Shown: positions 223 through 17,175 of the stretch, piece after piece
Numbering within the stretch: position 1 is the first letter of the stretch
Layout of the letters: each line of letters starts with the position of its first letter
UHGV virus genome: UHGV-2169520
Strand: one strand, 5' to 3'
From: a virus
Length of the DNA stretch: 32,664 nucleotides
Made by a program: the position numbers and the translations under genes
Notes under the pieces: generated by a model
What the model was told of the DNA's origin: nothing
What the model saw: only the letters and a program-made list of their open reading frames with translations
Databases searched by the model: none

Positions 223-324
223 ATGATGATGCCCTCACTGGTGAGGGTGACAAAAAAGCCCTCTCAATGGCGGGCAAATCTGGTTTTTTGTTTTGTCTCT
301 ACAGGGAAAGGGCGCCATATCGGC

Positions 325-724
325 CCACCCCAACAACCGGATAGCGGGGAATTTCTCCCCCGCTGCGGTTTCTTACGGTTTACACTGCAAGAACGCCGCA
401 AAACGCGCTCCCCAGATATCAAAGCTGAATTCACATAACGAATCGTGGACCATCCAGATGACCAGGGTTATTGTCAGGCATCAAATGCCAACAATAATCG
501 TTTTTTGCGGTATAGCGCTTGCTCCTTTTACAAAGAGGCGCTAACCTTCCACTTGTCACGGTAGGAAGGGTCAGGCCTCGGTTAAACACAGATGTTTTCC
601 GGGGCCTTTCCACATCCGGCCTTCAGGTTTTCCCTCCGGCCATCAGCCGAAAGGCACCCGTTTCTTTTTGTTGCGGCAATATTTCAGGTGTCAGTTGGGG
701 TGGGCTGTATCTTGTCTGATGCAT
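325..724. repeat. Copy 1 of a ~400-bp structured non-coding element (copy 2 at 2333-2745)
   Basis: Alignable with 2333-2745; 3' ~230 bp nearly identical, 5' part diverged; hairpin 343-364 kept by compensatory changes; substitutions in embedded ORFs show no third-position bias. Confidence 0.6.
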
Positions 725-821
725 AAAAAAATGCCCGCGCTTTGGCGGGCAAAAGACAAGACTTTTCGTTTGTATATCATGGATAATGGACACCCTTCCT
801 GTTGTCAGGTGGCAGGCACCC
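725..821 (-). ncRNA. Candidate small RNA unit B1 (body class alpha)
   Basis: Minus-strand -35 TTGAGA (851-856), 17-bp spacer, -10 TAGATT (828-833); terminator GCCCGCC..GGCGGGC plus U7 (725-750); predicted ~95 nt; no credible ORF. Confidence 0.35.
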
Positions 822-925
822 GTGGTTAATCTACTGTTTTTGTGCTTTTGTCTCAACCCTGAAGTTTTCATGGAAAATCAGGGTTGCTTCATATGTGCCA
901 GGAAGGTGCGGCTATGATAACTGCC

Positions 926-1018
926 AAAAAAAGCCCGCTTTCCGGCGGGCAAAACAGCAATGTGAGTTGTCTGTCATTGATACTGGACAGCCTTCCTGTT
1001 GTCAGGTGGAAGGTACCC
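926..1018 (-). ncRNA. Candidate small RNA unit B2 (body class beta)
   Basis: -35 TTGAGA (1048-1053), 17-bp spacer, -10 TAGATT (1025-1030); terminator hairpin 933-950 plus U-run (926-932 on plus strand); 5' hairpin CCUUCC..GGAAGG. Confidence 0.35.
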
Positions 1019-1122
1019 GTGGTTAATCTACTGTCTTTGTGCTTTTGTCTCAACCCTGAAGTTTTCATGGAAAATCAGGGTTGCTTCATGTGAACCAGGA
1101 AGGTGAGGCGATGGTAACCGCC

Positions 1123-1148
1123 AAAAAAATGCCCGCTTTCCGGCGGGC
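1123..1148 (-). terminator. Intrinsic terminator, minus strand
   Basis: Hairpin GCCCGCTTTCCGGCGGGC 1131-1148 preceded on plus strand by A7 (U-tract on minus strand). Confidence 0.6.
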
Positions 1149-1369
1149 AAAACAAGGAAGTACGGATCATGTATTATTGATTACGAGGCATTCCACCATG
1201 CCCACGTTTAATTTAGCTAGTTTTCATTTTATTCACAATATAGTTACTTATCATATTTATGAACAAAACTGTAATTTCATCTATAGGTATAAGTGATTTG
1301 CATTAACATGTTTCTTCTGTATTGCTGTTGGTTTTCCGATGCTGATATTTATGATACATTCAAGGGCAA

Positions 1370-1575
1370 ATGAGGTTGTTCCACAGAAACGATGTTGAGA
1401 TATTTCTGCTCCAGAAAGGACAAGCTAAAAAAATAAAGTGATATTATGATATGTCAGGGATGTTCAGGCATGTCAGTGTCTTATTAATAAACTCGTTGCT
1501 GCTGTAATAACACCAAAAAAATCAAAGCATAATCTGCATGTTGTTCCTGATGACCCAATAACCACAAAAGAATAA
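1370..1575 (+). pseudogene. Decayed copy of the 71-codon ORF family (intact copy at 3197-3412)
   Basis: ATG 1370 opens MRLFHRNDVEI then frame breaks (stop after 23 codons); C-terminal homologous segment ..RDVQACQCLI..HVVPDDPITTKE present out of frame; same flanking AT-rich region and terminator as the intact copy. Confidence 0.55.
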
Positions 1576-1668
1576 AAAAAATGCCCGCTTTCCGGCGGGC
1601 AAAACAGCAATGTGAGTTGTCTGTCATTGATACTGGACACCCTTCCTGTTGTCAGGTGGAAGGCACCC
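1574..1668 (-). ncRNA. Candidate small RNA unit B3 (body class beta)
   Basis: -35 TTGAGC (1698-1703), 17-bp spacer, -10 TAGATT (1675-1680); terminator hairpin 1583-1600 plus U-run. Confidence 0.35.
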
Positions 1669-1772
1669 GTGGTTAATCTACTGTCTTTGTGCTTTTGGCT
1701 CAACCCTGAAGTTTTCATGGAAAATCAGGGCTGCTTTGTGTGCGCCAGGGAAGGCGCCTCGATGGCAGGCGC

Positions 1773-1799
1773 AAAAAAAATGCCCGTGCTTCGGCGGGC
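1773..1799 (-). terminator. Intrinsic terminator, minus strand
   Basis: Hairpin 1782-1799 (one mismatch) preceded on plus strand by A8. Confidence 0.5.
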
Positions 1800-2026
1800 A
1801 AAATAAGGAAGTACAGGTTACATGTTATTGATAAAGTAGCATTGCTCTGTCCGTCTTTAATCTAACGAGTTTTGAGTTTTTTCACAATATTGTTACCTGT
1901 CATGTTATAGATGAAACTGCAATTTCATCTATAGGTATAAATGATTTGTATTAATGTGTGTCCACTGTTTGTCTGCTTTCTGGTTTTCAGTTGACTGTGT
2001 TTCTGATGAATTCAGGAGGTTGTCTT

Positions 2027-2125
2027 ATGAGGCTGTTCCACAGAAACGATATTGAGATTGAACTGCATTTCTCCTCCGGTGAGGATAAGGTTAAATCATT
2101 GTTGATGAAAAAAACAAAGATTTAA
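2027..2125 (+). pseudogene. Truncated copy (32 codons) of the 71-codon ORF family
   Basis: Strong SD AGGAGG 8 nt before ATG 2027; first 24 codons near-identical to 3197-3268 (2 of 3 differences synonymous) then divergence and early stop. Confidence 0.5.
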
Positions 2126-2194
2126 TTTATTGATATAAAGGATTTGTATCAGCGTATGTCCACGCAGTGACCACATTTTCGAGAGGTAGAGTAA

Positions 2195-2220
2195 GCCCGC
2201 AACATTGCGGGCTTTGTCTT
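2195..2220 (+). terminator. Intrinsic terminator, plus strand
   Basis: Hairpin GCCCGCAACATTGCGGGC 2195-2212 followed by TTTGTCTT. Confidence 0.6.
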
Positions 2221-2264
2221 ATAGTCTGATCACTGTTTCAAGTCGGTGAGGACACCAAAAAGAA

Positions 2265-2298
2265 AACCCGCAGTTTTTATGCTGCGGGTTTGTTTGTT
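2265..2298. terminator. Bidirectional hairpin terminator
   Basis: AACCCGCAG..CTGCGGGTT hairpin 2265-2290 with T-rich tract after it on the plus strand and U-rich tract after it on the minus strand. Confidence 0.5.
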
Positions 2299-2332
2299 CA
2301 TGTCTGTGAGATAGGGTGCCTTATCGACCTTA

Positions 2333-2745
2333 CCCTGGCAACCGATTGACGGGGGATTGCTCCCCCGTCGCGGTTTCCTTACTTCTTACATTGTAAGAAC
2401 GCCGCAAACTCCGCTCCCCAGAAGCTCATCCGTATTTCGCACAGCGAACCGTGCAATATCCAGATGATGAGGATTGCCGTCACGCAGAACGTGATGGCCG
2501 TAAGCGATTTTTGCGACATAGCACTTGCTCCTTTTCCGGAGAGGCGCTAACCTTTCACTTGTCAAGGTAATGCGGTTAGGGCCTCGGTTAAACAGAAATG
2601 TTTTCCGGGGCCTTTCCACATCCGGCCTTCAGGTTTTCCCTCCGGCCATCAGCCGAAAGGCACCCGCGCGTAATTTAACTGTTTCTTTTTGTTGCGGCAA
2701 TATTTCAGGTGTCAGTTGGGGTGGGCTGTATCTTGTCTGATGCAT
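2333..2745. repeat. Copy 2 of the ~400-bp structured non-coding element
   Basis: Alignable with 325-724; hairpin 2348-2369 GACGGGGGA-TTGC-TCCCCCGTC; 15-bp insertion relative to copy 1. Confidence 0.6.
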
Positions 2746-2841
2746 AAAAAAATGCCCGCGCTTCGGCGGGCAAAAAACAAGACTTTTCGTTTGTATATCA
2801 TGGATAATGGACACCCTTCCTGTTGTCAGGGGGAGGTACCC
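2746..2841 (-). ncRNA. Candidate small RNA unit B4 (body class alpha)
   Basis: -35 TTGAGC (2871-2876), 17-bp spacer, -10 TAGATT (2848-2853); terminator hairpin 2754-2771 plus U-run. Confidence 0.35.
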
Positions 2842-2945
2842 GTAGCTAATCTACTCACTTTGTGCCCGCAGCTCAACCCTGAAGTTTTCATGGAAAATCA
2901 GGGCTGCTTTGTGTGCGCCAGGGAAGGCGCCTCGATGGCAGGCGC

Positions 2946-2972
2946 AAAAAAAATGCCCGCTCTCCGGCGGGC
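2946..2972 (-). terminator. Intrinsic terminator, minus strand
   Basis: Hairpin GCCCGCTCTCCGGCGGGC 2955-2972 preceded on plus strand by A8. Confidence 0.6.
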
Positions 2973-3196
2973 AAAACAATGATCTACGTCACATTATATT
3001 GATAACCGGGCATTCCTCCATGCCCATTTTTAATTTAGCCATTTTTCATTTTGTTCACAATATAGTTATCTATCATATTCATGAATGAAATTATAATTTC
3101 ATCTATAGGTATAAATGATTTGTGTTAATATGTTTCTCCTGTCTAACTGTTTTCTCATTTTTCGATACTAGTATTTCTGATATATTCAGGGGGCGT

Positions 3197-3412
3197 ATGA
3201 GATTGTTCCGAAGAAACGATATTGAGATTGAACTGCATTTCTCCTCCGGTGAGGATAAGGTTAAATCAATAAAGGTGAAACTAAGACATGCCCGGGATGT
3301 TCAGGCGTGTCAGTGTCTTATTGATGAACTCGTTGCTGCCGGAGGAACGCCAAAAAAACAAAAATATAATCTGCACGTGGTTCCTGATGACCCCATAACC
3401 ACAAAAGAATAA
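3197..3412 (+). CDS. Small hydrophilic protein (71 aa), function unknown; only intact member of a three-copy family
   Basis: ATG 3197 with G-rich SD; MRLFRRNDIEIELHFSSGEDKVKSIKVKL..; convergent with ogr; AT-rich upstream region with conserved hairpin 3008-3036. Confidence 0.6.
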   Translation: MRLFRRNDIEIELHFSSGEDKVKSIKVKLRHARDVQACQCLIDELVAAGGTPKKQKYNLHVVPDDPITTKE

Positions 3413-3505
3413 AAAAATGCCCGCTTTCCGGCGGGCAAAAAACAATTTAGGTCATATTTCATCATGGATAATTAAATACTTGCCCGTGGTTGCGGGAAAG
3501 TATCT
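3411..3505 (-). ncRNA. Candidate small RNA unit B5 (body class gamma), immediately downstream of ogr
   Basis: -35 TTGAGA (3535-3540) starts 15 bp after ogr stop; 17-bp spacer; -10 TAGATT (3512-3517); terminator hairpin 3419-3436 plus U7; also the likely terminator for ogr. Confidence 0.35.
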
Positions 3506-3554
3506 GCCGTTAATCTACTTGCCTTATGATGTCCTCTCAACCTGATTATTGTTC

Positions 3555-3806
3555 TTAAATATCAAGATTAATCTGAGTATTCCCCCTGTGAGATCCCGGA
3601 AAATCTTCCCACGGTATCCGCTCTGTACCCTGCGGCGACGGGGCGCGTTTTGATGTGAATTTGTTAAAACCCTCCAGTGTGGTAAAGCCGATCCCGCATT
3701 CGAGGTTATTGCACTGGTAGTACTTCAGGCGAACTGTGCCTGAATCATTTTCATTGCGACTGGTGCGGATACGTGCGGATGCACCGCATAGGGGACAACG
3801 GAACAT
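3555..3806 (-). CDS. ogr: Ogr/Delta-family zinc-finger late-gene activator
   Basis: MFRCPLCGASARIRTSR...YYQCNNLECG: C-x2-C...C-x4-C zinc finger matching P2 Ogr; SD AGGAGA 4 nt before ATG. Confidence 0.9.
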   Translation of the reverse strand: MFRCPLCGASARIRTSRNENDSGTVRLKYYQCNNLECGIGFTTLEGFNKFTSKRAPSPQGTERIPWEDFPGSHRGNTQINLDI

Positions 3807-3849
3807 GGCTTCTCCTTATCTGGCTGAGTGGAGATGGCTCATTTTAATT

Positions 3850-4941
3850 TTATCCGCCTGAATCTGCTATCCATTCGGGGATTTTCGCTTCCAGCTCCAG
3901 TTGTGTGGTGAAGCCGCTTTCATCTATGATGTGCTCCACCCTGGCAATAATCCAGTCCTGATTGTCCACCTCGCTTTTAAAACCTGTTACCCTGCCGTGC
4001 ATTTCGGGGTACAGGTCGGCACGACCCCGTGCCAGAGTGATGGAGAATGCCGCTGCTCCCCGCTGTAACTCCTGCCACTTTGCCGCAGCTGCACGTCGTG
4101 CGGTTTCTTCATTCTGGTAAGTCCTGCGCAGAACGTAGACGTTCCCTTCCGCGCCTTCCATGTAATCACCCTCCCGGCTGCTGCTCTTCTCCTGTTTCTG
4201 TTTCCCGGCTTCCCTGCGTCGCTTCACGTTCACTTTTTTCTTTTGCCCGAACTTCAGATCGAGCCAGTGCGCCCGGACCCCCGTATACGCATCACGGTCA
4301 GCAATGCGAAAGCGGTGACTGTCGCCGCTGCTGCGGGTAATGGCGAACGAAGGCAGGGCTCTTCCGTCCGGCCCGGTTCCGCCACCCGGCAGAATGAATA
4401 ACAGGCTGCCGTTTTTTACGGTGGCAATCGCACCCAGCATTTCAGCCATGCGGGTCAGGAAGGATATATCGCTCTCTTCGGTCTGGTCAGCGTGGTCAAT
4501 TTCGATATCCATGAGGATTTCGCTTATCTGTGTCTTCAGGCCGTAGCGGTGAGCGATGGCTGACACAACCTGTTTTACGGTCACGTCGTGCCAGGATACC
4601 TCCCGCCTCACGTTGAACTCTTCCCGAAAATCTGCGCTGCTGGCGGTGATGATCAGTTTATCTGGAGGTCCTTCCCACGCAACCTCATCAACGACGTAGG
4701 TGCCCTTGTTAACCAGTGATTCTCCTCGCCAGCCAATCATCACTCTCAGGCGTGCGCCACGTGGTGGCAACTGTAACTGCCCGTCCGTATCGTCAAGGGT
4801 GAGGGTGACGCGGTCTGCCTCAAAGGCCCGGTTATCCGTCAGGGTCAGCGTCATGAGTCGCTCTGTGAGGTTTGCCAGTGTGTTGTTGTTGATGGTGATG
4901 TCGATATCCGGTGACGGAACGGTAACTGACAGCTCTTTCAT
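3850..4941 (-). CDS. D: Tail protein D
   Basis: P2 gpD-like over full length; start set at ATG 4941 (SD AGGAGAG) rather than the ORF-track start 4977, which lacks an SD. Confidence 0.85.
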   Translation of the reverse strand: MKELSVTVPSPDIDITINNNTLANLTERLMTLTLTDNRAFEADRVTLTLDDTDGQLQLPPRGARLRVMIGWRGESLVNKGTYVVDEVAWEGPPDKLIITASSADFREEFNVRREVSWHDVTVKQVVSAIAHRYGLKTQISEILMDIEIDHADQTEESDISFLTRMAEMLGAIATVKNGSLLFILPGGGTGPDGRALPSFAITRSSGDSHRFRIADRDAYTGVRAHWLDLKFGQKKKVNVKRRREAGKQKQEKSSSREGDYMEGAEGNVYVLRRTYQNEETARRAAAAKWQELQRGAAAFSITLARGRADLYPEMHGRVTGFKSEVDNQDWIIARVEHIIDESGFTTQLELEAKIPEWIADSGG

Positions 4942-5005
4942 GGTGTTCTCTCCTGGTGCGTTCTGTAATGGTTTCATGCACCGTAGCGGCGTTGAATGGC
5001 TGTTT

Positions 5006-5029
5006 TGTTGTCGCTGTCAGGAGACAACA
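5006..5029. promoter_or_regulatory. Candidate Ogr-type activator site in the divergent D/FI intergenic region
   Basis: TGTTGTC-N10-GACAACA, containing TGT-N12-ACA (5009-5026), centred ~55 bp from plausible start sites on either side. Confidence 0.45.
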
Positions 5030-5102
5030 TCAAAGGGGTGAGATTACCGCGTGTGTGGGTAATGATTACGCAAAATCAACCAGCCAGACAAGGGTGAAAC
5101 AT

Positions 5103-6386
5103 ATGAGTGAAACACGCTTTCATGGTGCGCGCGTAAGGGAAAGTACCGGCCTTGCCACCGCCATTAATGATGTGGATTCCAGTGTTATTGGTATTGTGGC
5201 TACGGCAGATGACGCGGATGAAACTCTGTTCCCGCTGAACAAACCCACACTGCTGACCCGCGTCAGTGATGTGCTGGGTAAGGCCGGCACAAAGGGGACG
5301 CTTTACAAATCGCTTAAGGCTGTCGCCGACCAGGTGAGCACGAAGGTGATTGTGGTGCGCGTTCCTGATGCCAGTTCTCAGGGCGCCCCGGATACAGGAG
5401 TTACATCATTCGGTCATCTGGATCCTGAAGACAGGGCATTTTTTGGTATTGATGAGTCTGAAGATGCACATCCTGTATACCCACACAAAACGCAGGACCA
5501 GTATGTCATTGGTGGCACGGATGGCGACGGTAATTATACCGGTATGTATGCACTTCTGATAGCTGAACAGGATGATGCCATCGGTTACCGTCCGCGCATC
5601 ATCGCAGCTCCCGGACTGGATACTGAAGCTGTCACAAAATCCCTGTGTGTAATTGCAGAAAAACTTCGCGCATTTGTCTACGCGGGCTGTCACAACTGCA
5701 AGAAGCCCGCTGATGCAATCAGCTACCGCGCCAGATTTAACGAGCGCGAACTTATGCTGCTCTGGCCTGACTTCATCGCCTATAACCCGAAATCCGGCGC
5801 TAATGAGGTCTTCCCGGCTGCGGCGTACGCCTGCGGTTTACGTGCACGTATTGACCACGAACAGGGCTGGCATAAATCGCTGTCCAACGTGCCGGTAAGA
5901 AATGTGCTGGGTATTTCCAGCCCGGTGTTCTGGTCCCTTCAGTCCGAAGACAGCGATGCCAACAATCTCAACAACAAGGAAATCACTACCATCATTTGCC
6001 GTAACGGTTTCCGCTTCTGGGGCAACCGTACGCCGGAAACGAAGGCGTATATCTTTGAGGTGTACACGCGAACCGCTCAGGTGCTGGCTGATTCCATTGC
6101 GGAAGCGCAGTTTGAAACGATTGATGCCCCGCTGACCCCTGCTAATGTGAAAGACGTGTTAAGCGCAATTCGCGCAAAACTGGATGCGCTGGTTACGTCA
6201 GGACGTCTCATTGGTGCGGAGTGCTGGTATGACGTGGTGGATAACAGCACCACGGAACTTCGTCAGGGACGCGTGCGTATCCGCTACAAGTACACGCCCG
6301 TTCCGCCGCTTGAGGATATGGAACTTTACCAGACGTTTACTGATGAATTCTTTGGTCCTGCATTTGCGACGCTTGGAGGTGCTTAA
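5103..6386 (+). CDS. FI: Tail sheath protein FI
   Basis: MSETRFHGARV.. P2 gpFI-like; ATG 5103 preferred over upstream in-frame start. Confidence 0.9.
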   Translation: MSETRFHGARVRESTGLATAINDVDSSVIGIVATADDADETLFPLNKPTLLTRVSDVLGKAGTKGTLYKSLKAVADQVSTKVIVVRVPDASSQGAPDTGVTSFGHLDPEDRAFFGIDESEDAHPVYPHKTQDQYVIGGTDGDGNYTGMYALLIAEQDDAIGYRPRIIAAPGLDTEAVTKSLCVIAEKLRAFVYAGCHNCKKPADAISYRARFNERELMLLWPDFIAYNPKSGANEVFPAAAYACGLRARIDHEQGWHKSLSNVPVRNVLGISSPVFWSLQSEDSDANNLNNKEITTIICRNGFRFWGNRTPETKAYIFEVYTRTAQVLADSIAEAQFETIDAPLTPANVKDVLSAIRAKLDALVTSGRLIGAECWYDVVDNSTTELRQGRVRIRYKYTPVPPLEDMELYQTFTDEFFGPAFATLGGA

Positions 6387-6904
6387 TGGCCGTACCAAAA
6401 AATCTCAGGGTGTTCACGCTGTTTACTGACGGGGTGAACCAGATTGGCAGGGTGACCGGCTTCACGCCCCCCAAACTGACCCGTAAAACGGAAGCCTATC
6501 GCGGTGGTGGTATGGCCGGCGCGGTGAATATCGACCTTGGTCTGGATGACGGCGCGCTGGATGCGAGTTTCACCATGGGCGGGCCGACCCGCGAACTGTT
6601 CCTTAAGTACGGCGGCACGATCGACGGTACGCTGCTGCGCTTTGTCGGTGAGTACTACAACGATGAAGAGCAGAGCGACCTGTATGAAATTGAGCTTCGC
6701 GGCCGCGTGACGGAAATTGATACGGGGGAGGCAAAACAGGGTGAGGTCACGTCTCACACCTATGCGGTCAGGAGTACCTACTACAAACTCAGCATTAACG
6801 ACCGTCCGGTGCTGGAGATTGATTTACTGAACCACATCGAACGCAAGGACGGCAAAAACGTCTTCCCGGACCGCGTGCGCTCGGCGATTGGTCTTGGTGG
6901 TTAA
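6386..6904 (+). CDS. FII: Tail tube protein FII
   Basis: MAVPKNLRVFTLFTDGVNQIG.. P2 gpFII-like; start overlaps FI stop (TAATG). Confidence 0.9.
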   Translation: MAVPKNLRVFTLFTDGVNQIGRVTGFTPPKLTRKTEAYRGGGMAGAVNIDLGLDDGALDASFTMGGPTRELFLKYGGTIDGTLLRFVGEYYNDEEQSDLYEIELRGRVTEIDTGEAKQGEVTSHTYAVRSTYYKLSINDRPVLEIDLLNHIERKDGKNVFPDRVRSAIGLGG

Positions 6905-6954
6905 TGTTTCCCACGGCGGCGCGCGGCGTCGCCCCCTGATTTGAGGTTTTATGC

Positions 6955-7317
6955 ATGAAAGAAAATCCGGTTGTTGCCCCTGTTACTGACGGTGCTGATG
7001 CGGCGGACGTGACCAGTGAGCGCGGCGTGACGCTGAAAACGCCCCTTGTGCTCGGTAACAAAAAAATCACGTATGTGGAAATCACGCCTGCTGTACAGCA
7101 GGCCGGTTCACTGCGCGGGCTGTCACTGCTTGACGTGCTGAACATGAAAACGGACGCGATGTTTGAGTTACTCCCGCGCGTCACTTCGCCGCGACTGGAC
7201 GAGGTTCTGCTTAAGCGCATGGGGTCCGCTGATTTTATTCAGCTGTGCGGGGTGGCGGTTAATTTTTTGGCCGGTCAGGACTCTGGCGGGAAGAGCGGGG
7301 CGGCGACGGCAGGCTGA
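6955..7317 (+). CDS. E: Tail assembly chaperone E
   Basis: Position between tube and tape measure; ends 50 nt after the T6G slippery site. Confidence 0.8.
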   Translation: MKENPVVAPVTDGADAADVTSERGVTLKTPLVLGNKKITYVEITPAVQQAGSLRGLSLLDVLNMKTDAMFELLPRVTSPRLDEVLLKRMGSADFIQLCGVAVNFLAGQDSGGKSGAATAG

Positions 7318-7481
7318 TAACCGTCGTGCCCTTTGAGCACATTGAAGACTTTGTGGCGGATATCGCCGTTATTTTCAACTGGTCTCCCGCTGAAATCTTC
7401 CTGATGGATCCCGGCGAGGTGGTCGCCTGGCGTGAGCGGGCGGCCCTTCGCAGCGGGAACGCAGAGCATGAAAACGCTTGA
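6955..7481 (+). CDS. E+E-prime fusion made by -1 frameshift at TTTTTTG (7263-7269)
   Basis: The -1 frame after the slippery heptamer stays open to TGA 7479-7481, overlapping the start of T, as in P2. Confidence 0.6.
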
Positions 7482-10400
7482 TATACGGGTCGCCTTCAGC
7501 GCTGTTGACAGGCTGACCCGTCCCACCGAAAACGCCCGTCGCATGATGGGCCAGCTTGGCGACTCCATACAGAGAACGCAGGGTGCGATCAAAAACCTGG
7601 AACGCCACGCCCGTTCATTTGATCGCGCCCGCGAGGCTGCAAACAAGGCCGGAAACGGCATTGTCAGGGCGCAACGCCAGTTAAGCGCACTTCAGCAAAT
7701 TCAGCGCGCCGGAACCGTGCTGTCTGACAAACAGAAAAAGCTGATGAATGATTTGAGCCTCAAACTTGAGCGTCTCAATGAGGTCCGTGCGCGTGAAGTT
7801 CAGCGAATGCGCGAACTGGGTGGTGAGCTGCGGCGCCACGGTATTGCGCTTTCCGGCAGTGACAACACCATTCAACAGGCCATACGGCGAACACAGCAAT
7901 ACAACGACCAGCTGGAACGCGAACGGCAGGCGCTGGCACGTGTCACGCAGGCACGCCAGCAATATTCCCGTGCTCAGGAGACGGCGGGAAAACTTAAAAC
8001 GGTCGGACTTACGGCGGTTGGTACGGCGGCGGCAGGCGGCTATGCGGCCGGACGTTTCCTGCAACCGGCGGTCAGTTTTGGTAAGGAGATGTCGCGCGTC
8101 CAGGCGCTGACCCGTATTGACAAAAACAGTCCGCAGTTTAAGGCGCTGCGCGAACAGGCCATTAAGCTGGGCTCTGAAACGCAGTTTACCGCCGGTGATG
8201 CTGCCAGCGGTCAGGCGTTCCTTGCCATGGCCGGCTTCACACCACAGGCCATACAGGCGGCGCTACCCGGCGTGCTTGATCTGGCAATGGCTGCAGGGAT
8301 GGACCTGGGACAGACTGCCGATATCAGTTCGAATATCCTCACACAGTTTGGTCTGTCCGCTGACCAGATGGATCGCGTGGGTGACACGCTGGCCGCCACC
8401 TTCACACGAACCAATACGGATCTCCGTTCGCTGGGTGAAACCATGAAGTACACGGGGCCGGTTGCAGCTTCACTTGGCCTGTCCCTTGAACAGGCGGCAG
8501 CCATGACGGGTGTCCTTGGCAGTGTGGGGATCCGTGGAAGTGATGCAGGTACGGCGCTGCGTGCCAGTCTGTCACGTCTGGTTGATCCGCCGAAGGCCGC
8601 TGCAATGGCACTGAAAGAGCTTGGCGTGGAGACGCAGGATGCTTACGGGAACATGCGCCGGATGGAAAATATCCTGAATGAGCTGTACCAGGCCACCCGA
8701 AAATACGGTAATGCCGCGCAGGTCTCCTTTTTCAGGGCTATTGCCGGGCAGGAGTCCTATGTTTCCCTGATGAATCTTGTCACTGCGGCGGGGGAAAATA
8801 ATCTTCCCCGTCTTACGCAGGAGATTGAACTGGCCACCGGGGAACTTAATCAGACTGCCCGTGTTATGGCTGATAACCTGGACGGTGACCTGAAATCACT
8901 GAACAGCGCATGGGAAGGACTGCGTATCCGTGTCGCTGACCTCGTTGACGGGCCGCTGCGTTCTGTCACGCAGTCGTTCACCCGGGTTATTGCGAAAGTC
9001 ACCGCGCTGGCTCAGGCGCACCCTGAACTGACAAAACAACTGCTGATTGCCGGTGGTGTACTGCTGGCTGCGGTTGCGGCCATGGGGGCGCTGTCACTTG
9101 CCACTGGTGTGTTGATGGGGCCGCTGGCAAAACTGCGTCTTGGGTTTGCCCTGCTGACCGGCACATCCGGCCTCGGTCGTGCGCTGCCGTTACTGACGCA
9201 GCTGCGCGGCGTACTCGGTGGTCCGCTGGGCGGTATCGGTGGCTGGCGCGTGCTGTTTGTCGGTATCACCTCCGGTGCCGGACGGTTTGCTGCACTGCTG
9301 GGCGTAGTTGCGGGGCGGCTTCGTGGTGTGCAGGCGGGACTTGGCGCGCTGCGTGGTGGTCTGCTGGCTGCGTTCACTTCACCTGGCGGCGCACTGATTT
9401 CACTGGGGCGCGGTATCGGAATACTGGCGCTCAGACTGTCAGGTCTGCCCGCACTGTGGGGGATGGTGAGTGGTGCGGTGGGCGCACTTGGCGGGGCGCT
9501 GGGTTTTCTGTTAAGTCCGGTGGGCCTTGTGGTGGCGACACTGGTCGGTGCGGCAGTGCTTATCTGGCGGCACTGGGACCATTGTTTGAGTATGTCGGGC
9601 AGACAATCGGGCGTGTGTGGCAGTGGTTCGTGGATTTGTTCGCGCCGGTAAGCACAACAAAGGATGAGCTGGACAAGTGCACGGAAGCCGGGCGGACGTT
9701 CGGGCAGAAGGTCGGGGAGTTTATCAGCAATCTGGTGACCGGTCCGGTTACGCTGCTGATTGACTCATTAACCCGGGTGCTGGAAAAACTCGGGCTGATT
9801 CCGTCAGCGGTTGAGCGCGCCCGGAAAAAAGCGGAAGAACTAAAACAGAAGGAGTTGCTGAACGAGAAAGCTGCCATGCTTCTGGCGGATGTTAACGTCA
9901 TTAATCCGCCGAAAAAGGACGAGGATAAAAAAGACGGCGAAAAACCCAAAGGGGGGCAACCACCCCTGACGGGGGAGAATACCGGCACTATGCGCCGCCT
10001 GAACAAAATCGTCGATAACACCGGTGGTCTGCTGGATGAGGCGAAACAGGCGAAAAAACGCGCTGGTCCCGGCGATATTATCTTTAAAAACCTGCCGGAA
10101 GCGCTGGCCGTTCGTGGTGAGTGGAAGGAGGAACGCTTTAACCGCGCAGCTTCCCTGTTACCGGGTAGTGTCAGTGAGCCACCTGTCAGACTGCCGCAGG
10201 TGCCGTCGGTCAGTGTGCCTTCGTTGCCACCGCTGCCAGCGCCACCGCCTGTCAGTGTTTCGCCGCTGATATCCACCACGGCGAACGTGTCGCCGGTCGT
10301 GAAGCCGGTGGTGTCCGTGAATAATGTGCCGGTTATTCCTCCGGTCGTCCGTCCGGTACTGTCCGGTAATATTACGCCAGTGGTTCCGCCGGTGATCAAA

Positions 10401-10694
10401 CCGGTTATGACTCACGATGTCATGCCGACGTTCTCCCCGCTAATGACACCAGTGATGGCGGCAACATCCCGTCCGGTGGTTGAGGCTGTGCGCCAGCCCA
10501 TATCCCCCGCATCGCCCCGACCGCGCCAGAGTGAGGCGGCACCATGGGGATTAACTGGCGAACTGCATATTCACCTGCATGATGTTCACACGCAAAACCC
10601 GCGCGAACTGGCAAAAATGGTGGGTGATGCCGTCCGTGCGGAAATGGAACGCCGTATCCGCCAGACAGTCGGTAGTTTCCGTGACAGAGATTAG
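7468..10694 (+). CDS. T: Tail tape measure protein; reading frame broken near 9566-9572 (possible pseudogene or sequencing indel)
   Basis: P2 gpT-like coiled N-terminal half and Gly/Ala/Leu-rich segment; two overlapping ORFs (7432-9651 frame 1, 9456-10694 frame 3); protein sense switches at ..AAVLIW / ALGPLFEYVGQ. Confidence 0.85.
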
Positions 10695-10705
10695 GAGTAC
10701 CTCGC

Positions 10706-11194
10706 ATGATGATGATTTACGGCATGTTTGTTTTTGAGTTGCGTACGCTGCCTCATCAACAACTGCAACATAATAAAACCTGGCGCCACGTTAAAAATGA
10801 ACGCATCAATCGTTCGGCCAGCTGGCAGTATATCGGGGCGGGTGACGACCAGATCACGTTGTCCGGTGTGCTTTATCCCGAAATTACCGGCGGTGAGGTT
10901 TCCCTCAGCCTTTTAACGACGCAGGCTTACACTGGTCGCCCATGGCCGCTGATTGACGGTGTGGGGCAGATATACGGCATGTATGTGATAACGGCTGTCC
11001 GCACAACGCGAAGCGAACTTGACCGCCACGGTAAGGCCAAAAAAATTGAGTTCACTGTCAGTCTGGAACGCTGTGATGAGGATTTGCGGGAGAGTATGGC
11101 CTCGTCGCCGGTGTCTGATATGCTTTCGGGAATGAAAGGGAAGTTAAGTTCGGTCTGGAATACCACAGTAAGCGGCGTAAATGATCTGATGTGA
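10706..11194 (+). CDS. U: Tail protein U
   Basis: MMMIYGMFVFELRTLPHQQLQ.. matches P2 gpU; SD AGGAG upstream. Confidence 0.9.
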   Translation: MMMIYGMFVFELRTLPHQQLQHNKTWRHVKNERINRSASWQYIGAGDDQITLSGVLYPEITGGEVSLSLLTTQAYTGRPWPLIDGVGQIYGMYVITAVRTTRSELDRHGKAKKIEFTVSLERCDEDLRESMASSPVSDMLSGMKGKLSSVWNTTVSGVNDLM

Positions 11195-11264
11195 AGGTAA
11201 TGTGCCGCATTCTTGCGGCACCTGCATGATGAATTATTTATGAATGCCCGTTCCTTTTCCCCGC

Positions 11265-11876
11265 TCATTCCATTTCTGGTGGTGTTTCCGGCCAGCTTAT
11301 TTCAGGCTCCGTGCTGATATCCAGTGCGTTCAGCTCGTCGATATAATCCAGCACGGCATTCAGTTTTGCCGTTTCTTCTGGTGTCAGACTGCGACCTGCC
11401 CGCAACTTAAGGTTGATGAGGTCGATGGACTTCATCGCCTGATCCACCCGTTCCTTGCGTTGCTGTCTGGCAACCTCCAGCTCTTCGGCTTGCTGCCGTT
11501 CTGTATCGGTTACCCACGCCTCACCGTTCCAGGTATCCCATGGTGTGGCAGGCTGTTTTGTCGTTGTCCCTTCCGGGTAGTCACCTGGTTGGGTAATCTG
11601 GACCGGATTACCGTTCTCTGTGCTGTATACCGTCTCTCCACGATGATCGGGGACATACTCCCACCCGTCCAGCGTGGACGTCCGGCAAATCACGTAACCC
11701 GGCATTGCCTCTGGCGGGGCATCGGCGCATGAATGTGCCGGGGTACCCACCCCCAGGGCGAGATACTCCACAGAGGATGAGGTGTATTCCCGGGTTTCCT
11801 CATCATAGTGATATACAGTGATATCGCCTGCGAAAGTGGCGATACCGTTTTCATCCAGAACTGCAGTGTTACTCAT
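11265..11876 (-). CDS. G: Tail fibre assembly protein
   Basis: P2 gpG-like; start overlaps H stop (TAATG). Confidence 0.85.
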   Translation of the reverse strand: MSNTAVLDENGIATFAGDITVYHYDEETREYTSSSVEYLALGVGTPAHSCADAPPEAMPGYVICRTSTLDGWEYVPDHRGETVYSTENGNPVQITQPGDYPEGTTTKQPATPWDTWNGEAWVTDTERQQAEELEVARQQRKERVDQAMKSIDLINLKLRAGRSLTPEETAKLNAVLDYIDELNALDISTEPEISWPETPPEME

Positions 11877-14119
11877 TAAACTGCCCTCACAATATAATTA
11901 AAAGCGATATTGCGCGGTCTGATCGCTATCCATCTGTCTTTTTCATTACTCACCAGCTTACCGGCTCTGGCTATTGCCCATCTGTCAACTGGTTTTGTGC
12001 CGTACAGGATGCCGTTACCGGTTCTGGGTTGATCAGGGGTTATGTTTATGATGTCGTTATCATGTGATGCAAATGAAATCCCTGCCTGAATATCTGCACC
12101 TCCCGCTACGCCGTGGTACGCCTGTATGGCGGTACAAATATATGTTGCTTCCTGTGTGGATAACAATAAGCGTCCCCTGTCAATCATTCGCAGGNNNNNN
12201 NNNNCATCCCATCCACGAATAAATTCCCCGCGCAAATCTGGTAGCCTGAGGTCAGGGTAGGCCACCGCCAGTTTTGGGTATTTTGTACGCGTGAATGCGG
12301 CACCGTTGCACTGTAACCACCCCTCAGGTGGTCTTGACGAAGGCCACGGAACGGGTACGCCAACTGGCAGCGTCGAGCCTTCTCCTAAACCAAAGTAATC
12401 AAGAATATCTTTTATGCTTTGTTTACCCATGATGACGCGGGCAACAGACGAAAAAACAGGGGCGTCTGTGATCTGAGCCCAGCGATGAGTGTGGGCTGCC
12501 GAGGCTTTGCTGTTGGCAAGGTCATACGCAGCTTTAACAGCTTTTGGTGTGGCCGCCAGCGTTTCGGAATTGCTGTTTGTGGCGCTGCTTAGCTGTACGA
12601 TGCCTTTGCGTCCGGTGGTTGCATCCTGTCCTGTATACTTGCTCGTCAGCATATCGTGTAAGGCTTTAACCGCTTTGGGGGTGGCGGCCTCAGTCTCTGA
12701 CTCACTGTTTGTGGCACTGCTCAGCTGTACGGTGCCTTTTGCCGTCAGCGAGGCTGATGGCACNNNNNNNNNNNNNNNNNNNNNNNNNNNNNNNNNNNNN
12801 NNNNNNNNNNNNNNNNNNNNNNNNNNNNNNNNNNNNNNNNNNNNNNNTGTGGCCGCCAGCGTTTCGGAATTGCTGTTTGTATCGCTGCTCAGCTGTACGA
12901 TGCCTTTGCGTCCAGTTGTTGCATCTGTGTTTGTCACCTCCACCCACTCTGACCATGGGCCGTTACCGTTAAAGTTTCCGGTAACTGTCCTGATAAATTT
13001 TCGTGGCGGATCCCAGCTCGTGTATTCATGCTGGCAGAATCCCCATGCACCAACACGGATGCGTAACTCTCCTGCCTTCTCTACAGGATAGTTTCTGTCT
13101 GTTCTCGCACCTGAGTCACTCTGCTGGTAATAATCTCCCGCGTCTTCCTTACGCCCCAGAGTGTTCAGGTCTGTTTCCCCCAGGGATGTTGTTGGCTTCA
13201 CGAACGCCATGCTCAGTGCATCACTTACTGCCTTCGGTGTGGCCGCCAGTGTTTCGGAATTGCTGTTTGTGGCGCTGCTCAGCTGTACGATGCCTTTGCG
13301 TCCGGTGGTTGCATCCTGTCCTGTATACTTGCTCGTCACCATATCGTGTAAGGCTTTAACCGCTTTGGGGGTGGCCGCCTCAGTCTCTGACTCACTGTTT
13401 GTGGCACTGCTCAGCTGTACGGTGCCTTTTGCCGTCAGCGAGGCTGATGGCACACCAGTTATCTGATTCCACGGGTGGGTGTGGCTGGCGGGTGCTTTAC
13501 CGGCTGCAAGGTCATATGCAGCCTTGACGGCCTTCGGTGTGGCGGCCAGTGTTTCAGAGGTGCTGTTTGTGGCGCTGCTCAGTTGGGTGAATCCTTTTTC
13601 TGTCAGTGTCGCGTCAGGGTGGTTACGGGAACGTGCGTGTTCCGCTATTTTCTCATCAATGTAGTCCGTGGTCGGCAGAATTGTTGTTGTGTCCATGACC
13701 AGTTCCACCACGGCGTCGGAGGTGACGGTGATTACTGCACGGAATATCTGCGCCCGCCCTGAACCTTCCTCTCTGGTGGGCTTGTAACTTTCAGCGGTAT
13801 TTCCTACTGCAATCATTGTACCTGTATCATCAAACACACCAATTTCACGCACCCAGAATCCGCCGGTTTCAGGAGGAATGACCAGTTCGGCGATGAGGCG
13901 GTTCGGGTTCTCCGGGTCGGTGAAGACGCGGTTGACAGACTGGCGCCAAACCTCATTGTAAAGCGATGTCTGGTTTTTCTGCGGCTGACGAAGCTCTCCA
14001 TTGCCGTCCCCTACAGCCATGTGCGTAAGGCGTACAGGTCTACCGCCAGGCGCCGTTGTTGCGGCCAGCTTTGCCAGCCCGATGTCGGTGATAAGGGTTC
14101 TGAATTTTCTCGTGCTCAT
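11876..14119 (-). CDS. H: Tail fibre protein; interrupted by two N gaps, internal repeats
   Basis: N-terminus MSTRKFRTLITDIGLAKLAA.. matches P2 gpH; repeated ..ATTGRKGIVQLSSATNSNSETLAATPKAVK.. blocks; C-terminal PDLRGEFIRGWD motif; N runs 12195-12204 and 12764-12847. Confidence 0.85.
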   Translation of the reverse strand: MSTRKFRTLITDIGLAKLAATTAPGGRPVRLTHMAVGDGNGELRQPQKNQTSLYNEVWRQSVNRVFTDPENPNRLIAELVIPPETGGFWVREIGVFDDTGTMIAVGNTAESYKPTREEGSGRAQIFRAVITVTSDAVVELVMDTTTILPTTDYIDEKIAEHARSRNHPDATLTEKGFTQLSSATNSTSETLAATPKAVKAAYDLAAGKAPASHTHPWNQITGVPSASLTAKGTVQLSSATNSESETEAATPKAVKALHDMVTSKYTGQDATTGRKGIVQLSSATNSNSETLAATPKAVSDALSMAFVKPTTSLGETDLNTLGRKEDAGDYYQQSDSGARTDRNYPVEKAGELRIRVGAWGFCQHEYTSWDPPRKFIRTVTGNFNGNGPWSEWVEVTNTDATTGRKGIVQLSSDTNSNSETLAATXXXXXXXXXXXXXXXXXXXXXXXXXXXXVPSASLTAKGTVQLSSATNSESETEAATPKAVKALHDMLTSKYTGQDATTGRKGIVQLSSATNSNSETLAATPKAVKAAYDLANSKASAAHTHRWAQITDAPVFSSVARVIMGKQSIKDILDYFGLGEGSTLPVGVPVPWPSSRPPEGWLQCNGAAFTRTKYPKLAVAYPDLRLPDLRGEFIRGWDXXXXLRMIDRGRLLLSTQEATYICTAIQAYHGVAGGADIQAGISFASHDNDIINITPDQPRTGNGILYGTKPVDRWAIARAGKLVSNEKDRWIAIRPRNIAFNYIVRAV
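12195..12204. other. Assembly gap (10 N) inside tail fibre gene H
   Basis: Run of N. Confidence 0.95.
12764..12847. other. Assembly gap (84 N) inside tail fibre gene H, within the repeated block
   Basis: Run of N flanked by near-identical repeat copies. Confidence 0.95.
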
Positions 14120-14122
14120 GGT

Positions 14123-14686
14123 TCAGTCTTCCGGGTAAATGGTGATGATGTCGCCGTCGTAACCTGCGGCAGCGGCGTAAATGGCACCGTGTATTTCCTG
14201 GATGATACTAAGCCCCACGAGGTGGCGGCTGACGGGGCGCGCATCGGCAATCAGACGCTCCATTTCTTCATGCAGCTCTTCACTTACTCCGGTTTCAAGT
14301 GTGCCAATCTCAATGGTGAAGGTCCCGGGCGAGCCGTCAAACTCCCACCATTCTGATACACGGATGAGGTAGCCCAGTGGTTCAACGATGCGGCGGAGTG
14401 CACTGATGGTCCCTTTGTGGCGATGTATCATCCATGCGTCCCGAATCACCTGTCGCCTGGTCTCTTCCGGCCAGTTGCGGTCCCAGCTGTCAACGGAACA
14501 TGCCCATGCAAGGTAGGGCAGGAGGTGAGCAGGGCAGCGGTCCGGCGACCACAGGGTGTCGGCGTCCACCGGTATGGTACTGATGCGTACTCCTGTCGCC
14601 TCTGTGGCGCGCATGAATGGCCCTGCGGACGGTGGAAGCAGTGATGTACTGTGCTGTGCGCTGTCTGTTTTTTTCCTGTCACTCAT
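14123..14686 (-). CDS. I: Baseplate protein I
   Basis: P2 gpI-like; start set at ATG 14686 (SD GGAGG, overlaps J stop). Confidence 0.8.
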   Translation of the reverse strand: MSDRKKTDSAQHSTSLLPPSAGPFMRATEATGVRISTIPVDADTLWSPDRCPAHLLPYLAWACSVDSWDRNWPEETRRQVIRDAWMIHRHKGTISALRRIVEPLGYLIRVSEWWEFDGSPGTFTIEIGTLETGVSEELHEEMERLIADARPVSRHLVGLSIIQEIHGAIYAAAAGYDGDIITIYPED

Positions 14687-15575
14687 TGCGTCCTCCTTCG
14701 CTGATGCTGAATGTGGTACATCTGGCTGCCTGAGTGTCACTGATGGTGATGTTCTGCGTGGGTTTTATGACCTCAACGCGCTGGACACCGTGAACATGCA
14801 GCGCTGCAGTGATGGCTGACAGGGCCACGTCCTGACCGATACGGCCCTGGTCTGCCAGCCATGCACGGAAAGCGGCGTCAGCGGCCGCAAGCATGGGTTC
14901 AGACTCCGGCCCTGGATAAAAATACAGCTTCGCTTCCATTACCCAGTTCACGATGGTAGCACTCTGCACAGTCAGGCGGTCGGCAACCGGGCGCACGTTC
15001 TCGGCATTCAGGGCGGTGCGCACCGTGTTCAGTAACGCCTCACCGGCGGTGCCGTCACCGTCTGCTGACAGGATGGAGACGGTGACTGTGGCCGGTGACG
15101 GGCTGATGGCGCGCGCATCACGGACAAGACCGCTTGCGCTCCGGGCAAAATACTCATACGCGCCGGACGGTCCGGCCACACTCAGGCCGTCCCAGGCTGA
15201 CTGGGCACGCAGACGCAGCGATGTGTCGCTTTCCATCACTGCTTCCGTGGTATCAGTGGCCGGATGAATGACCAGGCGGCGGGTGTTGTTGTTGGCGGCC
15301 AGATTGTCCAGGTCACTGCCCCGGCTGTGGCTGAGCATGCAGGCGCGGGCGGCTTCATTGATGCGCTGGCGAAGCAGCATTTCACGAAAGGCCATGGCCT
15401 GGGAAATGATGTTCAATGGCTCGGATTCCAGAGTAAGGGCACGGGTGACGGCGGCGCGGTATTCTTCCGGGAAGGAGCTCACCATCATGGTTTTAATGTC
15501 TGCCAGGATGGACTCAAAATCCGGCTGCGCGATGATGGCCGGTTCCGGTAACTGTGACAGGTCAACGGAAGGCAT
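14679..15575 (-). CDS. J: Baseplate protein J
   Basis: P2 gpJ-like over full length; SD GAGGGAG. Confidence 0.9.
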   Translation of the reverse strand: MPSVDLSQLPEPAIIAQPDFESILADIKTMMVSSFPEEYRAAVTRALTLESEPLNIISQAMAFREMLLRQRINEAARACMLSHSRGSDLDNLAANNNTRRLVIHPATDTTEAVMESDTSLRLRAQSAWDGLSVAGPSGAYEYFARSASGLVRDARAISPSPATVTVSILSADGDGTAGEALLNTVRTALNAENVRPVADRLTVQSATIVNWVMEAKLYFYPGPESEPMLAAADAAFRAWLADQGRIGQDVALSAITAALHVHGVQRVEVIKPTQNITISDTQAARCTTFSISEGGRNE

Positions 15576-15578
15576 GAT

Positions 15579-15929
15579 TTACTCCCTCAGGGTGATACTG
15601 AATGTGATGTTCTGCATGGTTTCGGTGATGATGCCGGATAACGTCACCACGGCGCGTCCGCCAGCCCGCCAGTTCACATCGACGTTCTGCAGTGCTATAC
15701 GGGGTTCATGGCGCGCCAGCGCAGTCACCGTGGCGCTCATGCACTGTAAACGCGTGGTGTCGTTCATGGGCTCGTCGATGAGGTCCGGTAACAGGCTGCC
15801 GTATTCGCGGCGCATCACCCGGCTGCCTGGCGGTGTGGTCAGGATATCCCGCACGCTGTTTTTCAGGTGTTCGCTGTCGCTCAGCGTGCCGGTTCCCTGC
15901 GGGTTCATCCCCCTGTAAACAGCGGTCAT
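15579..15929 (-). CDS. W: Baseplate wedge protein W
   Basis: P2 gpW-like; start set at ATG 15929 (ATGA overlap with V stop; SD GGGAGG). Confidence 0.85.
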   Translation of the reverse strand: MTAVYRGMNPQGTGTLSDSEHLKNSVRDILTTPPGSRVMRREYGSLLPDLIDEPMNDTTRLQCMSATVTALARHEPRIALQNVDVNWRAGGRAVVTLSGIITETMQNITFSITLRE

Positions 15930-17109: not shown

Positions 17110-17175
17110 GTTACTCATTCCTTCAGCGGGAACGAGGTTACGGTATCTCAGTTTCCCCATAACATTCTCCGCGTG

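Follow-up and report, generated by a model that had tools for sequence, protein, structure and literature searches.

An inverted FI-U tail block is the fixed late-gene order of a large enterobacterial lineage of P2-like phages

Introduction

In phage P2, the F operon (FI-FII-E-E'-T-U-D) runs in the same direction as the V-G operon and ends with D, which overlaps U. The E/E' pair is annotated as frameshifting at a TTTTTTG heptamer just upstream of T, a trait of the Peduoviridae (T TTT TTG, -1 frame). Late promoters dependent on Ogr or Delta have a weak -35 element and are preceded by the partial dyad TGT-N12-ACA, which is centred about 55 nt before the transcription start; their activation requires Ogr. 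In P2, the mapped sites read GTTGT-N12-CCAAC at PF, some 83 nt ahead of the FI start codon, and GTTGT-N12-CCATC at PP/PO; this second site, a symmetric dyad, serves a divergent pair whose starts map 111 bp apart, each about 55 nt from its centre. The canonical late order was seen in P2, RE-2010 and Kp4845-2, and the Burkholderia P2-likes KS5, KS14 and KL3 carry D-U-T on one strand (PMC3091744).

In P88/Xuanwuvirus (NC_026014, NC_049391 and CP025923), ogr and D read leftward, FI-FII-E-E'-T-U rightward and G-H-I-J-W-V leftward again. Between U and G, phages of the P88 type have alternative fibre genes together with a DNA invertase. P88 can be induced and is lytic, and spontaneous activity is described for phiSM (PMC5285337, PMC6456863). 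Here, a prophage locus with an FI-U block inverted relative to P2 is compared with these systems.

Results

The window, i.e. the whole stretch of 32,664 nucleotides analyzed (UHGV-2169520), is a P2-like (Peduoviridae) prophage of E. coli adjoining serS. Gene identities and strands were as stated in the original prediction when P2 proteins were searched against the window by tblastn and the ORFs were compared with Pfam (Table 1). Homologues of P2 FI, FII, E, T, U, D and ogr were present at 33-50% identity (E from 1e-10 to 1e-107), and the tail module contained sheath, tube, tape-measure, GpU, GPD and Ogr_Delta domains. The plus-strand genes FI-FII-E/E'-T-U fill positions 5103-11194 and are flanked by D/ogr and G/H, both on the minus strand. 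G and H (PF02413, PF12571, PF03406 and PF07484) form the end of a long minus-strand late operon, and I, J, W, V, S, R, X, L, M, N and O lie on the minus strand beyond H. Pfam searches with the early-region ORFs (25.6-32.6 kb) gave almost no matches. The canonical P2/186/Fels-2 order, with FI-U-D-ogr co-directional with V-G and D in the F operon, was absent from the window. Compared with P2, the FI-U block is reversed, and D, which keeps the orientation of the V-G operon, forms a transcription unit of its own, detached from FI-U. The predicted inversion was thus borne out by tblastn, Pfam and the P2 reference annotation, which also agrees with the accompanying description of V-W-J-I-H-G, FI-FII-E-T-U-D and ogr as reading in one direction in P2.

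The D start matches the PGAP start and has GGAGA 7 nt upstream as ribosome binding site. The ogr-like CDS in locus L100 is annotated by PGAP as "Ogr/Delta-like zinc finger protein". In the E/E' pair, the TTTTTTG heptamer is identical to that of P2 and in the correct phase, and the -1 frame of E' stays open until it overlaps the start of T. The T gene itself is split in the window (7432-9651 in frame 1 and 9456-10694 in frame 3), whereas closed genomes have a single ORF of 1103-1115 amino acids. Compared with these genomes, the window carries an 85-bp frameshifting deletion at 9565-9581, and the missing 85 bp lie between 17-bp direct repeats. FI of the window has a 31-residue insertion relative to other E. 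coli alleles; 396- and 427-residue alleles both exist.

Table 1. Genes and control elements of the inverted block and its surroundings (window coordinates)
Feature	Position	Strand	Basis
ogr-like late-gene activator (Ogr/Delta zinc finger)	3555-3806	-	Pfam PF04606, E = 4.9e-14; 36% identity to P2 Ogr
D (baseplate hub / late control D)	3850-4941	-	48% identity to P2 D, E = 2e-100; PF05954
Divergent D/FI control region, 161 bp	4942-5102		Sequence; proposed bidirectional Ogr-dependent late promoter
Predicted D-promoter extended -10, TGaAACCAT	4968-4976	-	Predicted
Perfect dyad GTTGT-N12-ACAAC, Ogr-type activator site	5007-5028		GTTGTCGCTGTCAGGAGACAAC, includes TGT-N12-ACA
Predicted FI-promoter -10, AATGAT	5061-5066	+	Predicted; -35-like GTGAGA at 5038-5043
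FI, tail sheath, 427 aa	5103-6386	+	43% identity to P2 FI, E = 2e-107; three sheath Pfam domains
FII, tail tube	6386-6904	+	Pfam PF04985, E = 1.8e-44
E	6955-7317	+	tblastn with P2; PGAP "GpE family" CDS
E+E', tail chaperone	6955-7481	+	-1 frameshift at TTTTTTG, 7263-7269
T, tape measure	7468-10694, two frames	+	Pfam PF10145; tblastn with P2
U, tail protein, final gene of the inverted block	10706-11194	+	PF06995, E = 2.8e-41; 50% identity to P2 U
8-bp GC-rich hairpin in the U/G spacer	11202-11221		GTGCCGCA-TTCT-TGCGGCAC
G, tail fibre assembly	11265-11876	-	Pfam
H, tail fibre	11876-14119	-	Pfam; P2 H matches
Second GTTGT-N12-ACAAC dyad	22641-22662		Divergent O/P spacer, counterpart of P2 PP/PO

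The gene order of the window is that of P88/Xuanwuvirus. As in P88-like blocks, D diverges from FI across a spacer within 160-220 bp, and U converges with the fibre genes. FII and D are 78-79% and 79% identical to their P88/Xuanwuvirus counterparts, and the dyad has the same position in the D/FI spacer. The two differ in the spacer itself, which has 161 bp and a right dyad half of ACAAC in the window but 181-204 bp and AGAAC in P88, and at the U/G junction, where the window has only 70 bp in place of the invertase and fibre genes. Membership of an ICTV genus requires a whole-genome nucleotide identity of roughly 70% or more to one of its members. Megablast with a 10.7-kb segment of the window as query matched P88 over about 13% of positions 3500-14200, at 78% identity. 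In the tree described below, the window group is sister to the P88 group. FI-U also reads in the flipped direction, with D on one side and the fibre genes on the other, in Novemvirus phiT5282H, Reipivirus Kp4867-1 and Reginaelenavirus Kp4860-2. These phages are more distant from the window (FII 58-62% and D 68-74% identical), have Enterobacter/Klebsiella hosts and differ from it in the content of the U/fibre junction.

With Xuanwuvirus, the flipped order is thus found in four ICTV genera. It was further seen in P884B11, in phage 520873 and in prophages of Salmonella, Citrobacter and Edwardsiella. Contrary to an expectation that Fels-2/SopE-phi would share the inversion, the Felsduovirus RE-2010 has the canonical order. 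Among 66 IMG/VR loci (FII at least 58% identical), a sample picked by similarity to the window in which the inverted clade is over-represented, all loci with both D and FI found were flipped. A contiguous D/FI junction was detected in 1389 of 5426 complete E. coli genomes (~26%), and the exact FII protein is listed in 2512 blocks of the assembly collection; a scan of genome contigs with FI as query returned only 4 loci. The flipped order proved to be real, contiguous in closed genomes, clade-specific and carried by viable phages. It is the fixed norm of a large enterobacterial P2-like lineage, neither an error nor a rarity. Of the original prediction, the inversion relative to P2, the Ogr-type dyad and the hairpin held. 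The implied unusualness of the order did not: synteny comparison found it to be the norm in this P2-like subgroup, shared by annotated relatives, IMG/VR loci and the E. coli genomes counted above.

The N gaps had been described as lying away from the block junctions, and the three N runs (12195-12204, 12764-12847 and 20310-20320) are indeed at least 1 kb from both. On that basis a scaffolding artefact, in which draft construction would have turned the block round, had been called not the obvious explanation, though not an excluded one; the presence of three N runs speaks for it, as would the 85-bp deletion in T if this were an assembly error. However, the 84-N run matches real sequence in length, and both junctions are present in closed chromosomes 100% identical to the window, among them NZ_CM144243. 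The region recurs at 95% identity or more in 28 complete genomes, two independent IMG/VR contigs span the junctions, and identical junctions are present in dozens of independent assemblies and phage genomes. The flipped order is not an assembly artefact, and we assign a negligible probability to this explanation. A programmed, reversible inversion by a site-specific invertase, as in the tail-fibre segments of Mu, P1 and P88, has a precedent in the invertase and alternative fibre genes at the U/G junction of P88-type relatives. In the window, though, this junction lacks an invertase gene, and a search around the block found no inverted repeats joining both junctions, for which reason the idea of an invertible segment was dropped. 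That FI-U faces the same way with respect to D and H in all 70-plus clade loci likewise speaks against a segment of the Gin/Cin/Hin type, and flipping would part FI from its promoter arrangement. Programmed inversion is extremely improbable.

Simple neighbor-joining trees were built from HSP-derived sequences. With FI, FII, U and D combined and a canonical Novispirillum outgroup, inverted and canonical loci were split in 100/100 bootstraps, and the window fell inside the inverted clade, also at 100/100. FI and D each gave this split on their own (100/100). FII and U are too short as proteins for trees of either one to separate the clades (17 and 28 of 100 bootstraps). The split in the FI and D trees together with the canonical outgroups points to one ancient inversion as the most likely origin of the order, one breakpoint lying at the U-D boundary and the other upstream of PF. 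Given the mosaic nature of phage genomes, and with the U/G junction known as a hotspot for cargo (PMC3573123), an FI-U cassette from another phage lineage might have been inserted backwards. Such a module replacement is unlikely, given that identity to P2 is broadly alike inside the block (FI 43, FII 40, E 36, T 33 and U 50%) and outside it (35-57%; D 48, J 55, I 57, V 46, N 40 and P 46%), and that FI, from inside, and D, from outside, yield the same split. What speaks for an ancestral window order and a derived P2 order is that, among the enterobacterial loci sampled, each clade is sister to the other, which leaves the decision to the root. This polarity is nevertheless very unlikely: U and D are co-directional in the alphaproteobacterial Novispirillum outgroup and in the Burkholderia P2-likes (PMC3091744), and in P2 they overlap by one base, as expected of an old operon.

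FI had been predicted to diverge from D across about 160 bp containing an Ogr-type dyad. Using the D start supported by PGAP and the ribosome binding site, the spacer is 161 bp long, and its dyad is perfect and matches the trait of Ogr/Delta promoters. The mapped P2 sites are of like form, and PF shares with the window the GTTGT-N12 site at about 83 nt from the FI start codon. The exact GTTGT-N12-ACAAC sequence occurs twice in the window, only in the D/FI and O/P spacers (0.09 by chance; at least two in 0 of 100 shuffles). Plain TGT-N12-ACA is at chance level in the window (8 versus 8.6 expected), so only the extended form is informative. Further late promoters were sought with a looser dyad (2 mismatches), which gave chance-level matches only. 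One match of this search is a palindrome inside R at 17384-17409. A sigma-70 promoter scan flagged none in the D/FI spacer.

Alignment of D/FI spacers from 21 diverse loci revealed conserved blocks, among them -10-like blocks about 44-50 nt to each side of the dyad centre. From dyad centre to FI ATG, nearly all inverted spacers with a located dyad measure 80-89 nt; of the 11 canonical PF regions examined, 10 measure 79-84 nt. To the right of the centre, inverted-clade loci keep nATnAT at bases 44-49; P2 PF has GAAAAT at bases 45-50, one base off, and a mapped start at about -57. To the left, an extended -10 motif at bases 42-50, TGn(A/G)A(C/T)(C/T/G)AT, was defined after the alignment had been viewed; it is present in 31 of 44 distinct inverted-clade spacers, the strict pattern missing 13 variants, and in none of the 11 canonical PF regions. 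This left -10 is weak in the P88 subgroup (TGcGACCAT), and the right dyad half is degenerate in many relatives (AGAAC, AGACC). From conservation and spacing, we infer a D promoter and its dependence on Ogr. Like the PP/PO site of P2, the symmetric Ogr site appears to be shared by a divergent pair of late promoters, predicted to start near 5073 (+) and about 4961 (-), some 112 bp apart and each about 55 nt from the centre; compared with PP/PO, the leftward unit would be short (D, perhaps ogr).

At the other end of the block, U converges with G across the predicted hairpin, which lies in a 70-bp spacer and for which a stable fold was computed (-16.4 and -15.0 kcal/mol; z = -2.9 and -3.5). Of the two traits of an intrinsic terminator, a GC-rich stem-loop and a U-tract after it, the first is present; no T-run follows on either strand, and a terminator scan did not flag the hairpin. 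Relatives have unrelated hairpins or terminators at the U/G junction. The hairpin is probably a two-way transcription stop or RNA end.

Discussion

We consider it highly probable that a lineage-fixed order, a single inversion, the detachment of D, a two-way Ogr site and the U/G hairpin jointly explain the locus. The more specific proposal, that a single ancient inversion separated D from the F operon and was tolerated via the symmetric Ogr site, D needing only a new extended -10, is favoured by a little over even chances. Tolerance would follow from the ability of a symmetric Ogr site to activate both directions. In the overall explanation, the inversion would have cut D out of the F operon, and the dyad-symmetric site would have moved with PF, so as to lie now about 55 nt upstream of two back-to-back promoters. 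The rightward promoter would drive FI-U, and the leftward one, with its own extended -10, would drive D and perhaps read into ogr. The resulting D/FI layout would copy the PP/PO architecture of P2, and the hairpin between U and G would keep the two converging late transcripts apart.

In the literature searched, no explicit description of the inversion was found, and neither a bidirectional D/FI Ogr promoter nor the D/FI junction as a lineage marker was found stated. The current understanding of P2 late-gene control is unchanged by the marker or by the spacer. As a marker, the D/FI junction is simple and robust: it is very common in E. coli and tells the P88-like lineage apart from that of P2/186/Fels-2 (100/100 bootstraps). 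If the proposed history is true, the rearranged junction would cleanly mark a Peduoviridae lineage that roughly a quarter of complete E. coli genomes contain, and the spacer would be a second, evolutionarily recent bidirectional Ogr promoter. The spacer also offers a natural experiment on how the symmetry of an activator site allows an operon to be divided by an inversion and given a new promoter. P2 is not representative of gene order in all P2-like phages, and deviation from its order should therefore not count as a sign of anomaly or misassembly.

Gene Order of the Tail Region

Genes were placed by tblastn of P2 proteins (translated from NC_001895) against the window, together with Pfam. 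The window has a G+C content of 54.8% and holds a P2-like prophage. Beyond H, the genes I, J, W, V, S, R, X, L, M, N, and O lie on the minus strand, as does A; P and Q lie on the plus strand. No separate V-operon spacer is present, because S and V overlap. In P2, V-W-J-I-H-G, FI-FII-E-E'-T-U-D, and ogr are all co-directional, and the block from FI to U is therefore inverted in the window. D and ogr share the strand of the remaining late genes, and only FI-U is turned round. All factual elements of the original prediction were confirmed: the inverted block by the P2 protein matches, Pfam, and the P2 reference order; the divergence of D and FI over about 160 bp holding a dyad of the type used by the late-gene activator Ogr; and, from the sequence and fold energies, the convergence of U and G across a hairpin.

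Late genes in and around the inverted block (tblastn with P2 proteins and Pfam)
Gene	Position	Strand
ogr	3555-3806	-
D	3850-4941	-
FI	5103-6386	+
FII	6386-6904	+
E	6955-7317	+
T	7468-10694	+
U	10706-11194	+
G	11265-11876	-
H	11876-14119	-

Within the block, the FI/FII overlap is kept, the T start is intact, and so is the E/E' -1 frameshift site (TTTTTTG, 7263-7269); the site is in phase, and the -1 frame runs open as far as 7481. At 5369-5504, FI contains a 93-bp (31-aa) insertion or divergent stretch when set against the other alleles of this prophage in E. coli; the 427-aa tail sheath allele of the window and one of 396 aa are each found among complete genomes.

The tape-measure gene T is broken in the window. 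Relative to otherwise 100% identical closed E. coli chromosomes, 85 bp that lie between a pair of 17-bp direct repeats are absent (9565-9581), which shifts the frame: the first ORF ends at 9651, and the remainder continues in frame 3 to 10694. This loss is either a real deletion, making the prophage defective, or a draft consensus error. Elsewhere T is a single ORF of 1103-1115 aa (comparison loci L096 and L100) or 1185 aa (IMG/VR contig L009). In L100, from the closed chromosome NZ_CM144243, PGAP in RefSeq calls T (9969-12164) a partial pseudogene "missing C-terminus," despite a single 1115-aa ORF at 9933-13280; the call looks like an annotation quirk.

Distribution of the Inverted Order

The closest named phages, Escherichia phages P88 and P88_4B11 (Xuanwuvirus), match the window exactly in their annotated gene order. 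When order was classified by local tblastn over 100 fetched loci, the inverted form was found in Xuanwuvirus (P88, P884B11, and 520873), in Novemvirus phiT5282H, Reipivirus Kp4867-1, and Reginaelenavirus Kp4860-2, and in prophages of Salmonella, Citrobacter youngae, and Edwardsiella piscicida. Every IMG/VR locus (L008-L073) with a tube protein at least 58% identical to that of the window and with both D and FI found was inverted. Canonical order occurred only among more distant loci, namely P2, Felsduovirus RE-2010, Kp4845-2, Novispirillum, and several IMG/VR contigs. With a 761-bp D-spacer-FI query, counting contiguous matches over at least 80% of its length, the junction was present in 1389 of 5426 complete E. 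coli genomes, O157:H7 among them. P88 can be induced and is lytic, and phiSM shows spontaneous activity (PMC5285337, PMC6456863), so the flipped order is fully functional.

Assembly and Origin of the Inverted Block

A scaffolding artefact had been left possible, but the closed chromosome NZ_CM144243 (strain DG341-1), 100% identical to window positions 1-9581 and 12848-17909, carries both junctions contiguously. Positions 3500-11900 are present at 95% identity or more in 28 complete E. coli genomes, and the junctions are crossed by two further, independent IMG/VR contigs, L008 and L009 (93-98% identical); an assembly artefact was thus rejected. The prophage is from E. coli and adjoins serS. The N runs (12195-12204, 12764-12847, and 20310-20320) are located in M and in the tail-fibre repeats of H. 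Where the window has the 84-N run, an identical closed genome has exactly 84 bp of real H repeat sequence. The runs thus behave like masks and not like scaffold joins or gaps of unknown size. A segment that flips back and forth was rejected as well, since a search for inverted repeats flanking the block found none and the U/G junction of the window has no invertase gene.

Neighbor-joining of concatenated FI, FII, U, and D from 31 dereplicated taxa separated inverted from canonical loci at 100/100 bootstrap. The same split was obtained at 100/100 from FI alone, inside the block, and from D alone, outside it; the FII and U trees did not resolve it, both proteins being too short. Identity to P2 is broadly alike within (33-50%) and outside the block (35-57%), which argues against a foreign cassette acquired from elsewhere. 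The outgroup locus, Novispirillum, has canonical order, and D, U, and T are listed on one strand in Burkholderia phages KS5, KS14, and KL3 (PMC3091744). The simplest reading is one inversion in the ancestor of the enterobacterial lineage holding the window. Its first breakpoint would lie at the U/D boundary, where the two genes share one base in P2, and its second upstream of the activator site of the P2 late promoter PF.

The D/FI Spacer

The 161-bp D/FI spacer holds the dyad GTTGTCGCTGTCAGGAGACAAC at 5007-5028. The D start at 4941 has a GGAGA ribosome-binding site, and PGAP uses it in an identical genome. Exact GTTGT-N12-ACAAC occurs twice in 32.6 kb, here and in the O/P spacer (22641-22662), against 0.09 expected by chance; none of 100 shuffles reached two. 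The mapped activator sites of P2 PF (GTTGT-N12-CCAAC, 17559-17580) and PP/PO (GTTGT-N12-CCATC) have the same form. Inside R, a degenerate palindrome in coding sequence (17384-17409, TTGTTGCGCTCAGGATTAAGCAGCAA) resembles the late-promoter dyad at two mismatches on both strands.

In a 21-locus alignment of the inverted clade, TTGT, the left half-site, does not vary. Where the dyad could be placed in this clade, its centre is nearly always 80-89 nt from the FI ATG; for canonical PF regions the distance is 79-84 nt in 10 of 11. To the right of the centre, nATnAT is conserved at bases 44-49 (5061-5066), with a -35-like GTGAGA placed 17 nt upstream; in P2 PF, GAAAAT stands one base further out (bases 45-50), and mapped starts lie about 57 nt from the site centre. 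FI transcription is predicted to start near 5073. To the left, nearly mirror-symmetric at bases 42-50, most inverted-clade spacers have an extended -10, TGn(A/G)A(C/T)(C/T/G)AT (4976-4968, minus strand, in the window), from which D transcription is predicted to start near 4961, about 20 nt upstream of its ATG. The motif was found in 31 of 44 distinct inverted spacers and 0 of 11 canonical PF regions, which speaks to specificity and not function because it was defined after the alignment had been seen. About 112 bp separate the two predicted starts, which lie on either side of one symmetric site; P2 PP/PO has this geometry, its mapped starts (3016 and 3127) being placed around a site with its centre near 3072. 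The site could thus act as a bidirectional Ogr promoter, driving FI-U rightward and D leftward. The inversion may have been tolerated because such a site would work in both directions, leaving D in need of only a -10.

The U/G Junction

The 70-bp U/G spacer contains the hairpin GTGCCGCA-TTCT-TGCGGCAC at 11202-11221, with folding energies of -16.4 (plus strand) and -15.0 kcal/mol (minus strand; z = -2.9 and -3.5, respectively). It has no U-tract. In relatives the junction is occupied by 0.8-2.9 kb of cargo or by unrelated GC-rich hairpins, among them several classical terminators. The junction is the counterpart of P2 "moron position 2" between G and FI (PMC3573123). This cargo hotspot, equivalent to the P2 Z/fun position, is empty in the window (11195-11264); P88 and P884B11 have a fibre shufflon there, made up of a DNA invertase and a second pair of genes, for an alternative tail fibre and its assembly (L001 8251-10955 and L002 17282-19749).

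Other Features of the Prophage

The 3.5 kb from serS to ogr (1-3500) has few ORFs and is made up of diverged direct repeats, 80-87% identical. A hok-like unit (306-956 and 2310-2978) includes an intact Hok/Gef gene (2379-2519, minus strand) and a pseudogene with a stop (376-513, minus strand); a second unit (926-1611, 1575-2098, and 2746-3446) bears 71-aa ORFs. These repeats may be stacked remnants of prophage ends at one attachment site. In the early region, C4 antisense RNA (31431-31518, minus strand, 79 bits) adjoins isrK (31554-31629, minus strand, 62 bits), both Rfam matches above the gathering score, which points to a module for immunity or antirepressor function under antisense control, in the style of P1/P7, within a P2-like prophage.

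Significance of the Inverted Order

The original prediction implied that the order was unusual. Synteny with other P2-like genomes instead showed it to be the lineage norm, in four ICTV genera and throughout L008-L073, which is an outcome that the prediction itself had named as refuting. An explicit description of the inversion was not found in the literature searched; it is nonetheless evident from the annotated genomes deposited for several ICTV genera and from the RefSeq annotation of identical E. coli prophages. The inverted arrangement is real but ordinary; only mildly new are the use of the junction to mark the lineage and the putative Ogr promoter acting in both directions.
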